Assembly: GCF_988242995.1 (NCBI RefSeq)
Contig: NZ_OZ547043.1
DNA length: 64,000 bases
Strand: one strand, 5' to 3'
Shown in pieces: positions 57,801 through 62,936 of the stretch (positions are counted from its first letter, which is position 1; each line of letters opens with the position of its first letter). Made by a program: the position numbers.

Positions 57801-60800
57801 TCAAAACGCTGGGGGCAGGGCGAGCGCAACTGCGTAAGCTAATCGTCGGTCAGTGGTTGATGGTGCTGGCGCTTTCAGCCGTTACCGGCGGGGCGATAGG
57901 CCTGTTGTTCGAAAACGTGTTGATGGTGCTGCTCAAGCCCGTTCTGCCTGCTGCACTACCGCCAGCCAGCCTCTGGCCGTGGCTGTGGGCGCTGGGCACC
58001 ATGACAGTCATCTCGCTGCTGGTGGGGCTACGACCGTACCGCTTGTTGCTGGCAACGCAGCCTTTACGCGTATTGCGTAATGATGTGGTCGCGAACGTCT
58101 GGCCGCTGAAGTTTTATCTGCCGATTGTCAGTGTGGTGGTTGTGCTGCTGCTCGCCGGATTAATGGGTGGCAGTATGCTGCTCTGGGCGGTGCTGGCGGG
58201 CGCGGTAGTGCTGGCTTTGCTGTGCGGTGTGCTGGGCTGGATGCTGCTGAATGTACTTCGCCGCATGACGCTGAAATCGCTACCTCTGCGCCTGGCGGTT
58301 AGCCGCCTGTTACGTCAGCCGTGGTCAACGTTAAGCCAGCTTTCGGCATTTTCGCTCTCCTTTATGCTGCTGGCGCTATTGCTGGTATTGCGTGGCGATC
58401 TGCTCGACCGCTGGCAACAGCAGCTACCGCCAGAAAGCCCGAACTACTTTTTAATCAACATCGCCACAGAACAGGTTACGCCGCTAAAAACGTTCCTCGC
58501 GGAACATCAGATAGTCCCGGAATCATTTTATCCGGTGGTGCGGGCGCGACTGACGGCGATTAACGACAAGCCGACAGAAGGCAATGAAGATGAGGCGCTT
58601 AACCGCGAACTCAATCTTACCTGGCAAAATACGCGGCCCGATCATAATCCGATTGTCGCCGGTAACTGGCCGCCAAAAGCCGATGAAGTGTCGATGGAAG
58701 AGGGGCTGGCGAAACGCTTAAACGTTGCCCTCGGCGATACCGTGACTTTTATGGGCGATACCCAGGAGTTCCGCGCTAAAGTGACCAGCCTGCGCAAAGT
58801 GGACTGGGAAAGTCTGCGGCCTAATTTCTATTTTATTTTCCCGGAAGGGGCATTAGACGGGCAACCGCAGAGCTGGCTTACCAGTTTCCGCTGGGAGAAT
58901 GGCAATGGCATGTTGACGCAACTCAACCGCCAGTTCCCGACCATTAGCCTGTTAGACATTGGCGCGATTTTAAAACAGGTCGGTCAGGTGCTGGAGCAGG
59001 TAAGTCGGGCGCTGGAGGTGATGGTGGTGCTGGTCACCGCCTGCGGTATGTTGCTGTTGCTGGCACAGGTGCAGGTGGGAATGCGTCAGCGTCATCAGGA
59101 GCTGGTGGTGTGGCGCACACTCGGTGCGGGGAAAAAACTGCTGCGCACCACGTTGTGGTGTGAGTTCGCCATGCTCGGGTTTGTTTCTGGCCTGGTGGCC
59201 GCAATTGGTGCGGAAACGGCGCTGGCAGTGTTGCAGGCGAAAGTGTTTGATTTCCCGTGGGAGCCAGACTGGCGATTGTGGATTGTTCTGCCGTGCAGCG
59301 GTGCGCTGCTGCTGTCGCTTTGCGGCGGCTGGCTGGGCGCGCGACTGGTTAAGGGTAAGGCGCTGTTCAGGCAGTTTGCGGGGTGATGTGATAAAGCCGT
59401 TTATTTCTACCTGGTAGATAAACGGCTTTATTATTAGTGCATCACGTAATTAAAAAATTGTTATGCCCAAACATATAATTAATATACATTGCCAAATGAG
59501 TTGTTTATTAAGTTTATATTATATAATTAAAATCTATGGAATGGGTATAATCATATGGGTGACATTATATATTTACGCATTACAGGGGAGCAACAAGGGG
59601 ATATTTCTGCAGGATGCGGGACGCAAGCCTCTGTCGGGAATCGGTATCAACAGGGACATGAAGATGAAATATTTGTTTTTAGTTTTCAGGGAGGAGTGAG
59701 TAATACAGGATTTGGCATTAATCATCAAGCGATACAATTTTGTAAAATTCTCGATAAAAGCTCACCGCTGCTGATGAATTGCATTAATAATAACGAACGA
59801 TGCCGTTTTGAGTTTGATTTTTATCGTATTAATAAATATGGGAAATGGGAAAGTTATTATTATATTGAAGTCCGCGGTGCAACGTTAACTCAGAATCAGA
59901 TTATAATAAAAGAAAATGAACTCGACTATCAATATATAACAATACACTACAAATATATCTACTGTAAGCATCTTACAGCCAATACAGAATTTAGTTATTT
60001 ACTCACACCTGAAAATTATAATCGCCTTTTCCCACCGACGCTCTTACCTGTTGAGGAAAAACCAGAAATACCGCCTGAACGAGAAATTATCCTCACCATT
60101 GGCGTATTCTTTGATGGCACAGGAAACAATTTAACCAATACGAATTTACGTATGAGTTTTTGCCAACCAGAAACCTATGGTCTGGATGTCCAGGATTTGG
60201 CCTCGTTTAATAAACAATGTATGAGCAAGCAGGGTAAAACGGGATCCGGAGTACAGAGCTATTTGAATTACTATACGAATATTCATTGGTTGAATGAGTT
60301 GTATCATCGGCAATTAGTTTTAGATGATGATGTATTTAATATTCAGGAAAAAATATATATTGAAGGTATTGGCACTGAAAATAATAAAGCAGACTCTCTG
60401 GTAGGAATGGGGCTAGGAAATAATGATACTGGGGTAATTGCCAAAACTGACCGTGCGATATCACTGCTTCGTGAGACACTGGCAGAGATTATTGTTGATT
60501 TAAAGGATGCTAAACTAGTAATTAAGCGTCTACAGTTTGACGTATTTGGCTTTAGTCGTGGGGCGGCAGCCGCACGGCACTTTACTAATCGCGTATTTGA
60601 ACGTGATCCCGTACTGATTAAAACCATTGCGACGGCATTTCAGTCAGTTGAATATTTAGGTAAACCTTCCGGGGAAGTGCAATTTTTAGGTATTTTTGAC
60701 ACAGTTGCAGCCATCGGAGGGCTGATGGATGGTTTTGACCCTCATGATGGTAATAACTTTCCGGTAAAAGTGAAGTTACCGCCAGGTGTGGCCAAACATG

Positions 60801-62936
60801 TATTCCAGCTCACAGCAATGAACGAATGTCGCTATAACTTTTGCCTCAACAGCATAAAGGAAAGCTGGCCAGAATTAAGTTTCCCTGGATCACATGCTGA
60901 TATTGGTGGCGGTTATGACCCACAGGAAGATGAGTACCTGTTTTTAAGTCGCCCGGCGATTGAAACGGTACTGGGAAATGTGCCGATGGAAGCGACAAGC
61001 GCTTACCAAAAAGCAGTACAGCAGGCAGAGTTATTGTGGCGCTATTCGACGCTGGCTCCGATTCTGCCTTCTGGTGTCCTAAAAATTGAATCCAATATTG
61101 ATGAAATAGCGTCGCCTGACCACTTAGGTAATGTGAGAAAACGGGTCGCTGCAGCGGTGACATTTCGCAGAACGATCACCAATGACTGGTCAAAGATTGC
61201 GTTAAGAGTAATGTATGAAGTCGCTAAAGAGGCAGGGGTAGTATTTGATGCCATTTCTGTTGCTGATAAGGAATTAAAAGTTCCCAGTCATTTAAAGGTA
61301 ATATGTGAAAAAGCAATTTCTCAGGGTAAAGCCGTTCTCTTGTGTACAGCGCCGATGCCTTTTTCTGATGATGAGCTTAAAACCATTGGGAAATATTTAC
61401 ACTGTTCTTCCAACTGGAATACCGTCGATTATCGATTAAAAAATAAGGTGTCTGCTGAAGTATCAGCGTTTAAGACGTTTAGTTTTGTTAATCGGCCGGA
61501 TGAAAATTGGACCAGAACTATATACGATATGCAAGGGAATAAACAAAATGGAATTTAATATAAAATTACTGTTTGTTATTACGTCTATGGTTCTTAACTT
61601 TAACGCAGCAGCGAAAGAAAAAATATTGTTGCTTGCACCCTATGATGAGTGGTATTTCAATTTTTTCTACCCTGATTCCCTACCAGCACAAGTTACCTAT
61701 GTGGAATTATTAGATACCGATGGCATCTATTATCAGTTCAGAACGCTGGCCAGTACCAATGCCAGTCCAGGAAGTGTTGGACAATGGAGCGAGAAAGTAT
61801 CAGGGATGTCGTCAGTTTTTAATAAAGCCAAAAACCCACCAATGTCTATCCATTTTTGCTGGGATTCAGTGATTGATAAAAAAGTGTATGAAACCTGGAT
61901 AACACTGGCGGGAGACGTCTGGAAATTGATGCTCACACCTTATTCACCACCAGGCGGTGGCAGTGAAAAGTATTATCTGCGGTATCTGTTAATCGGGCTG
62001 GCTCCGGAAGGAAAAGTACGGGTATGGCTTAATAAACGTGACAAACCCAATATTCGCCTGACGGATAAGCAGATTCTGATAGAAACGGTTTCAGGTGAAA
62101 AAATGGAAATGTGTAAAGGAATTTCCCGGCATGATTTTTCTCTTGGAGACGATGAATATGTTCTTGAGTTTATCAAAGATAAAAAATATCCCTATGGTAA
62201 CTGGTAAGTAACAATGAAAATAACAGCTAAAATAATTTATAGATTAACCATTGCGTTAATGATAGCCGGATCAGTCCAGACAGCAGCGAAAGAAAAAATA
62301 TCACTGCTTGCACCCTATGATGAATGGTATTTCCTTTTTTTCTACCCTAATGCGCTACCAGCACAAGTTACCTATGTAGAACTATTGGACACTGATGGTA
62401 TCTATTATCAGTTCAGAACGCTGGATGCTACCGCTCCGAGTTCCACTACTATTGGTCAGTGGAGAGATAATCTTCGGGTTGGGGTGTTATCATTCAATAA
62501 AGCCAAAAATCCCCCTATGTCTATCCATTTCTGCTGGGATTCAGTGATTGATAAAAAAGTGTATGAAACCTGGATAACGCTGGCGGGAGACGTCTGGAAA
62601 TTGATGCTCACACCTTATTCACCACCAGGCGGTGGCAGTGAAAAGTATTATCTGCGGTATCTGTTAATCGGTCTGGCTCCAGAAGGAAAAGTACGCGTAT
62701 GGCTGGAGAAACCTGACAAGCCCAATATTCGCCTGACGGATAAGCAGATTCTGATAGAAACGGTTTCAGGTGAAAAAATGGAAATGTGTAAAGGAATTTC
62801 CCGGCATGATTTTTCTCTTGGAGACGATGAATATGTACTTGAGTTTATCAAAGATAAAAAATATCCCTATGGCAACTGGTAGTTAACCAGTTGCACAATT
62901 TATTAAAGAGGAACGGAAAAGCATTTTTGTGGGTTA

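Follow-up and report, generated by a model that had tools for sequence, protein, structure and literature searches.

What is encoded in the low-GC segment between ybbP and mnmH/selU in contig NZ_OZ547043.1 (assembly GCF_988242995.1), and could the cell that carries it fire the product at its neighbours? We analyzed a 64,000-nt stretch of this contig, hereafter the window, and concentrated on the segment in question, a three-gene islet. An earlier note, made from the sequence alone, had read it as an orphan cargo islet for a type VI secretion system (T6SS): a 667-aa protein at 59555–61558 with an N-terminal Hcp domain fused to a Tle1-like lipase, then, after an 11-nt overlap, two tandem genes for signal-peptide-bearing, immunity-like paralogs, with no T6SS core genes in the window. 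The note added that such a fusion might be undescribed. Its account of the genes was borne out by our analysis; its suggestion of novelty was not. The locus is very probably an orphan T6SS effector-immunity cassette that was acquired horizontally and belongs to the published Hcp-ET2 type. Its three genes are laid out as follows.

59396 to 62954, no strand: the islet, a variable segment between ybbP and mnmH/selU, delimited by BLASTN against K-12 and by GC content.
59555 to 61558, plus strand: hcp-tle1 (Hcp-ET2 type), 667 aa, from the open reading frame (ORF) list, hidden Markov model (HMM) and structure-chain matches, and RefSeq calls.
59555 to 60064, plus strand: Hcp/TssD domain (aa 1 to ~150) with a proline-rich linker, from PF05638 and TIGR03344.
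60070 to 61558, plus strand: Tle1-family phospholipase domain (aa 173–667), from the match to PDB chain 6sjl and the GFSRG nucleophile elbow.
61548 to 62207, plus strand: immunity paralog 1 (Tli1/DUF2931), 219 aa, Sec-type signal peptide, no lipobox cysteine, from homology to Tli1 of enteroaggregative Escherichia coli (Tli1-EAEC) and from RefSeq.
62214 to 62882, plus strand: immunity paralog 2 (Tli1/DUF2931), 222 aa, Sec-type signal peptide, no lipobox cysteine, from PF11153 and Tli1-EAEC homology.

RefSeq gene calls in two other genomes, GF60 and one of sequence type 131 (ST131), give exactly the same three genes, with identical starts in GF60. The N-terminal part of the large protein belongs to the Hcp/TssD family by an HMM above its curated threshold: TIGR03344 (TssD) matches aa 1–149 with 125.2 bits against a cut-off of 58.9. 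PF05638 (Hcp) matches aa 6–138 (E 5.7e-13), and the PDB Hcp structures 3he1, 6a2v and 5mxn match the same domain with E values of 1e-14 to 1e-10. A proline-rich linker at aa ~155–175 (LFPPTLLPVEEKPEIPPERE) leads into the lipase. There, residues 30–541 of the solved Tle1-EAEC chain (6sjl) align with aa 173–661 without major gaps (E 1.4e-127), and BLASTP gives 46.5% identity over ~490 residues. PF09994, the Tle1-like catalytic domain formerly called DUF2235, matches aa 369–460 (E 9.6e-11), and two further solved chains match: 9j3f (E 2.3e-10), named as a protein containing a Tle1 phospholipase domain, and 4o5p (E 1.8e-06), which was deposited under the name of an uncharacterized protein. Both profiles that the note had named for the two halves were thus recovered.

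Both motifs that it had quoted are present as well, GVFFDGTGNN at aa 183–192 and GFSRG at aa 332–336. By residue count of the alignment, Ser334 (in GFSRG), Asp382 (in FDTV) and His447 (in GSHADIGGG) stand opposite S197, D245 and H310 of 6sjl, and together they form the predicted catalytic triad, of the Ser-Asp-His kind that had been foreseen. The defining features of Tle1–4 are GxSxG and an S-H-D triad (PMC9860674); the protein shows both homology to the catalytic domain and a GxSxG motif with aligned Ser, Asp and His. Its identification as a T6SS effector in which Hcp is joined to a Tle1/DUF2235 lipase is well supported by these matches.

In NCBI and RefSeq the product is called only "type VI secretion system tube protein TssD/Hcp", a name from which the lipase domain cannot be guessed; copies that are truncated go by "DUF2235 domain-containing protein". 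Taken at face value, the TssD name would make this an ordinary structural Hcp with a non-toxic C-terminal extension. We regard that as extremely improbable, since ~490 residues are homologous to a solved and enzymatically characterised phospholipase, the nucleophile motif and aligned triad are intact, and cognate immunity homologues lie directly downstream; the sequence evidence already contradicts it. The annotation gap matters in practice, because TssD-only naming conceals a lipase effector from keyword searches.

The downstream genes supply the other half of the cassette. The ATG of paralog 1 at 61548 lies inside the toxin gene, which ends at 61558, giving the 11-nt overlap, and the two tandem paralogs share 80% protein identity. 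Their membership in the DUF2931/Tli1 family, the immunity role that the note had assigned to them, follows from homology and from an export signal. Paralog 1 is 46–49% identical to Tli1-EAEC (E 1e-55 to 1e-62) and paralog 2 is 47–50% identical to it, the matches of both together spanning E 1e-55 to 1e-63. PF11153 (DUF2931) matches paralog 2 (E 5.2e-26), and the RefSeq product name of paralog 1 is DUF2931 family protein. Read from the sequence, both begin with hydrophobic N-terminal signal sequences that end in NAAA or QTAA directly before KEK. No lipobox cysteine as in Tli1-EAEC (LLTGC) was found in or after the signal peptide of either paralog. Because there is no cysteine near the signal peptide, both are probably soluble proteins of the periplasm. 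Tli proteins have lipoprotein or Sec signals, and a lipobox is not needed across the family (PMC13133936). Both paralogs would be expected to neutralise the toxin beside which they are encoded.

These genes also bear on the question of the target. A lipase of this family might act chiefly on eukaryotic host cells, as a virulence factor, rather than on bacteria: purified Tle1-EAEC lysed ~50% of RAW264.7 macrophages (PMC9860674), Tle-family enzymes can work across kingdoms (PMC6730261, PMC9860674), and many carriers of the islet are extraintestinal pathogens such as ST131. We nonetheless rate a primary host-cell role as quite improbable, given that two dedicated exported immunity genes point to a toxin that reaches bacterial periplasms, and that Hcp-ET2 is entered in the literature with a prokaryotic target (PMC6730261).

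Tail types differ among the immunity pairs. In EAEC strain 042 and in ST131 the C-terminal tails of the two paralogs are unlike each other (a-type and b-type); the pairs of the window and of GF60 each have two a-type tails, and the last ~370 nt of the paralogs there are 91–99% identical. In the window the 3′ third of paralog 2 is near-identical to paralog 1. Because both tails are a-type in the window and GF60, as against a plus b in EAEC and ST131, the pattern suggests gene conversion between the tandem immunity copies. Such recombination of C-terminal tails between lineages could matter for the specificity with which Tle1 is inhibited. A third DUF2931/Tli1-like gene was noted in the pheU island of EAEC 042 (44810–45403 of the retrieved stretch), far from any tle1 and with its N-terminus missing. 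It is 43% identical to the paralogs of the window and may be an orphan immunity gene.

Is the combination new? The toxins that extend Hcp at its C-terminus (Hcp-ETs) fall into five clans, and DUF2235 is one of them (PMC6730261, PMC6099711, PMC10433429, citing Ma et al. 2017, Virulence 8:1189); more than 350 such fusions have been reported across 17 enterobacterial species (PMC6099711, PMC10433429). Hcp-ET2 from enterotoxigenic E. coli (ETEC) PE321, A31K_02346, is reported to act by Tle1 phospholipase activity (PMC6730261, PMC6099711) and to serve interbacterial antagonism, with T6SS-dependent delivery and a prokaryotic target (PMC6730261), and a table row "Hcp-ET2/ETi2 (Tle1/Tli1)" gives ETi2 (Tli1) as its immunity partner (PMC6099711). 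The islet has the features of this class, namely Hcp and DUF2235 in one ORF with a Tli1-type gene, here two homologues, directly downstream; the assignment was made by architecture, immunity type and species as described in reviews rather than by alignment to A31K_02346. An undescribed class of evolved-Hcp effector, as the note had entertained, is therefore very hard to credit. Database product names do hide the lipase domain, and probably account for the impression of novelty, but DUF2235 is among the five Hcp-ET classes, Hcp-ET2 has been characterised (PMC6730261, PMC6099711, PMC10433429), and the islet is present in 573 complete E. coli genomes. The catalogue of fusion domains given in the note, with no lipase among them, was also mistaken; DUF2169 seems to have been put there in place of DUF2235.

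The islet is foreign DNA, very probably acquired horizontally, as judged from its GC content of 39.6% against 54.7% for the window and from a break in K-12 homology that runs from 59395/59396 to 62955. In BLASTN the left-hand match ends at 59395, 9 nt past the ybbP stop codon; K-12 is matched again from 62955 onwards, a position within mnmH/selU, 21 nt from the 3′ end of the gene. The last seven codons of mnmH/selU (62934–62954) are islet-specific DNA, where the protein ends ...WVQTYACGY; K-12 homology of the gene stops at the start of these islet-supplied codons. A truncated mnmH was suspected from a 335-aa ORF and was ruled out, the gene being intact and continuing past the end of the window. 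K-12 has at this site the rhsD-ybbC cassette, a polymorphic toxin-immunity cassette associated with T6SS, and the ybbP–selU site is on that account a hotspot for toxin cassettes.

No T6SS core genes lie in the window, where 1–19.7 kb is housekeeping DNA and 19.6–64 kb could be read from the GF60 annotation. The islet is an orphan module, as the note had it, with the T6SS cluster located elsewhere.

We found the islet in 573 of 5426 complete E. coli genomes (10.6%), ST131 included, always on the chromosome. It occupies the same ybbP–selU site in the two other genomes inspected (GF60 and ST131). The lipase-domain DNA is at least 99% identical to that of the window in 545 of the 573 genomes, and NCBI has the 667-aa protein, with exactly this sequence, from 67 contigs. 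GF60 is the closest relative of the window, with one amino acid different in the toxin, two in paralog 1 and none in paralog 2. A distant DNA search with the lipase domain returned the same 573 genomes only, with no canonical tle1, whose DNA has diverged too far for a search of this kind. A distant DNA search with the Hcp domain for a cluster hcp gave Hcp-ET3/4 islets (aroP–pdhR) and yhhZ-like genes instead.

Which apparatus could fire the fusion? Carrier genomes were examined for T6SS, standing in for the source genome of the window. GF60 has a near-complete T6SS-2 cluster at aspV, ~340 kb from the islet, with tssB, C, E, F, G, J, K, L (icmH), H, A and M and two hcp genes. The Hcp domain of the fusion was compared by phmmer with the Hcp proteins of the E. 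coli systems.

Against T6SS-2 HcpB (042): 88.6 bits.
Against T6SS-2 HcpA (042): 52.4 bits.
Against metV-type T6SS-1 Hcp (Z247): 24.4 bits.
Against EAEC T6SS-1 Hcp (042): 19.5 bits.
Against T6SS-3 AaiC (042): no significant match.

Because phmmer ranks the T6SS-2 Hcps far above the T6SS-1 Hcps, the Hcp domain is assigned on sequence to the T6SS-2 lineage; its identity to T6SS-2 HcpB is 35%.

We then estimated co-occurrence with chimeric queries that joined islet DNA to a tssC gene, run over the complete E. coli genomes; the counts were derived from record and place totals and are approximate. The query with T6SS-2 tssC gave 1109 records and 1126 places, that is, ~553 genomes with T6SS-2 and ~17 carriers with both, GF60 among them. 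The query with the metV-type T6SS-1 tssC-tssK gave 1403 records and 1979 places, corresponding to ~556 carriers with that system. All nine carriers sampled by distant search have exactly one tssC besides the islet, and Z247, a representative ST131-type carrier, has a complete T6SS-1 at metV. A T6SS at aspV was looked for in an ST131 carrier and none was found. An apparent lack of any T6SS in ST131 carriers, seen by megablast with the tssC alleles of 042, proved to be a sensitivity artefact for T6SS-1, which distant and metV-type queries found. Every carrier examined has a T6SS; in ~97% (ST131-type, ~556 of 573) it is T6SS-1, with no T6SS-2 tssC.

Delivery in the T6SS-1-only carriers is uncertain, because the Hcp of their own system and the Hcp domain of the fusion are very distantly related. 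Either their T6SS-1 fires an Hcp fusion of foreign lineage, or an undeliverable toxin is kept in ST131, a pandemic clone, chiefly for its immunity genes; we put this forward tentatively. The islet is nearly fixed in ST131-type carriers despite the apparent mismatch with their sole T6SS. If true, firing by T6SS-1 would amount to cross-system loading of a specialised Hcp, a small and testable question on the specificity between effector and apparatus; in the library searched we found no paper on T6SS-1 carriers with an Hcp fusion of T6SS-2 lineage. For the window itself the question of lineage mismatch does not directly apply, its allele matching that of GF60, a T6SS-2 strain.

Carried further, the mismatch would make the islet stranded or mainly defensive, with a toxin that cannot be fired without a matching T6SS-2 and immunity genes that protect against Hcp-ET2/Tle1 attack by others. 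The ~556 of 573 carriers that have only the metV-type T6SS-1 fit such a reading, as do the phmmer scores (88.6 bits against T6SS-2 Hcp, 24.4 against metV T6SS-1 Hcp) and the report that Hcp-ET1 is delivered by T6SS-2 and not by T6SS-1 (bioRxiv 10.1101/2024.03.05.583533). In a few ST131-type genomes (about five of the carriers seen) hcp-tle1 is split by the insertion sequences IS1 or ISKpn26, and both immunity genes are annotated as intact. Yet disruption was seen in those about five carriers only, the toxin ORF of the window is intact with its catalytic motifs present, and its allele is of the GF60 type, one amino acid off in the toxin, GF60 having a T6SS-2 cluster; cross-loading onto T6SS-1 could also occur. 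We think a stranded or mainly defensive islet unlikely.

Several points weigh against the reading of the locus as a working Hcp-ET2-type effector-immunity cassette. The match to Hcp-ET2 (A31K_02346, PE321) was set by published descriptions. Significant PF09994 coverage of the lipase is limited to aa 369–460. Without the lipobox of Tli1-EAEC, the paralogs would be located differently from their characterised homologue (soluble periplasmic as against anchored in the outer membrane). In the T6SS-2 cluster of GF60, vgrG is flagged as partial, the sole gene so flagged. For ~97% of carriers the sole detectable T6SS is T6SS-1, with an Hcp very distant from that of the fusion.

With these points weighed, the Hcp-ET2-type cassette is still the reading that we hold very probable, and we propose that it works as follows. 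The operon would be transcribed from the AT-rich region downstream of ybbP. The fusion would then be loaded into the Hcp tube, or onto it, of an apparatus whose genes lie elsewhere, most likely T6SS-2 because the Hcp domain is of T6SS-2 lineage, and a contracting sheath would drive it into a neighbouring Gram-negative cell. In the target periplasm the Tle1 domain would hydrolyse membrane phospholipids, in the manner of phospholipases A1 and A2 (PLA1/PLA2), using the GFSRG serine, Asp382 and His447. In sister cells the two exported Tli1-family proteins would give protection by binding and inhibiting the lipase in the periplasm. The fusion would be a specialised Hcp, in which the tube-subunit domain takes the place of the N-terminal VgrG-binding extension of Tle1. 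Because the Hcp domain replaces that extension, delivery would be by covalent attachment to the Hcp tube and not by docking to VgrG; covalent attachment to a tube subunit is the delivery mode given for the Hcp-ET family in reviews (PMC6730261, PMC10433429). The tube or Hcp ring would have to accommodate a domain of ~500 aa (~55 kDa).

Three candidate signals for expression of the operon were mapped.

59388 to 59434, plus strand: strong hairpin with a U-rich tract behind it, close past the ybbP stop codon (59384–59386); −23.2 kcal/mol, z = −7.6 against shuffles.
59450 to 59479, plus strand: sigma-70-like promoter match TTAAAA-18-TATAAT, 76 nt 5′ of the hcp-tle1 start codon; score 10/12.
62870 to 62897, plus strand: hairpin resembling a terminator, from a terminator scan, which overlaps the stop codon of paralog 2 where the three-gene operon ends; −15 kcal/mol, z = −3.6.

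The first hairpin, which marks where the islet begins on the left, probably serves ybbP as its terminator. Promoter-like matches are not enriched in the region (5 found against 11.1 expected from shuffles), and the match at 59450–59479 is thus a weak one. The hairpin at 62870–62897 is predicted to close the operon as its terminator.

The first 19.7 kb of the window consists of core housekeeping DNA (dnaX...copA) that 5411 of the 5426 genomes have. From 19.6 to 64 kb the window is collinear with annotated GF60 DNA, from which we transferred glsA, ybaT, a type I secretion system, a 20-kb Ig-like adhesin gene, cueR, a YadA-like adhesin gene and ybbJ...ybbP. At ~19600–49000 the type I secretion genes (TolC-family, HlyD-family, ABC permease/ATPase) adjoin the ~20-kb gene for the Ig-like repeat adhesin, whose internal repeats are 72–77% identical to one another. 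Beside the YadA-like adhesin gene, 49026–49644 is 81% identical to GF60, after which there is no match until 50015; the flanks of this diverged stretch are 96–98% identical to GF60. The pattern suggests that 49026–50015 is a variable adhesin segment. Beyond glsA, GF60 has an integrase and P2-like phage genes; at ~19600 the window runs straight into copA and other core genes, and the GF60 prophage is absent from the genome of the window.

How does the islet compare with known systems? The rhsD-ybbC cassette of E. coli K-12 shares with it the ybbP–selU intergenic site. There the toxin is borne on an Rhs shell and here on Hcp, and the two inserts are unrelated in sequence, BLASTN finding only the flanks in common.

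The Hcp-ET3/4 islet (aroP–pdhR, UTI89_C0121 type) has the closest relative of the Hcp domain that we found, at 59% identity. It is likewise an orphan cassette between core genes, with three tandem immunity genes, and since it too has this layout, an orphan Hcp toxin with multiple immunity genes is a usual arrangement. Its C-terminal toxins differ, being Pyocin S3 and colicin-DNase nucleases with a cytoplasmic site of action, and for immunity it has small proteins of the bacteriocin-immunity kind, likewise cytoplasmic.

Closest in its enzyme is Tle1-EAEC with Tli1-EAEC, from the Sci-1 (T6SS-1) cluster of E. coli 042 (PDB 6SJL/6SKI), a periplasm-acting PLA1/PLA2 inhibited by the lipoprotein Tli1 (PMC9860674). 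The lipase shares the GFSRG elbow and the aligned Ser, Asp and His. The EAEC 042 locus, in the order vgrG, tle1, tli1, tli1, PAAR, has two tandem DUF2931 genes behind the toxin, as in the islet, and the a-type and b-type C-terminal tails are common to its immunity pair and that of ST131. Tle1-EAEC is a separate cargo that loads onto the TTR extension of the VgrG1 spike through its N-terminal extension (PMC9860674), whereas the fusion of the islet has Hcp and a proline-rich linker in place of the first ~30 residues. Tli1-EAEC, with its LLTGC lipobox, is anchored in the outer membrane as a lipoprotein, whereas the paralogs of the window have Sec-type signals and no cysteine. Finally, tle1-EAEC lies inside the T6SS-1 cluster, whereas the islet is an orphan with an Hcp domain of T6SS-2 lineage.

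Hcp-ET2/ETi2 is the system that the islet resembles throughout. There too, a single polypeptide begins with Hcp and ends with a DUF2235/Tle1 phospholipase, and one or more Tli1-type immunity genes follow downstream, in E. coli and outside a T6SS cluster. Compared by published descriptions, Hcp-ET2 and the fusion of the window show no difference in kind; the islet is an already known, Hcp-ET2-type cassette, with little in it that is new.

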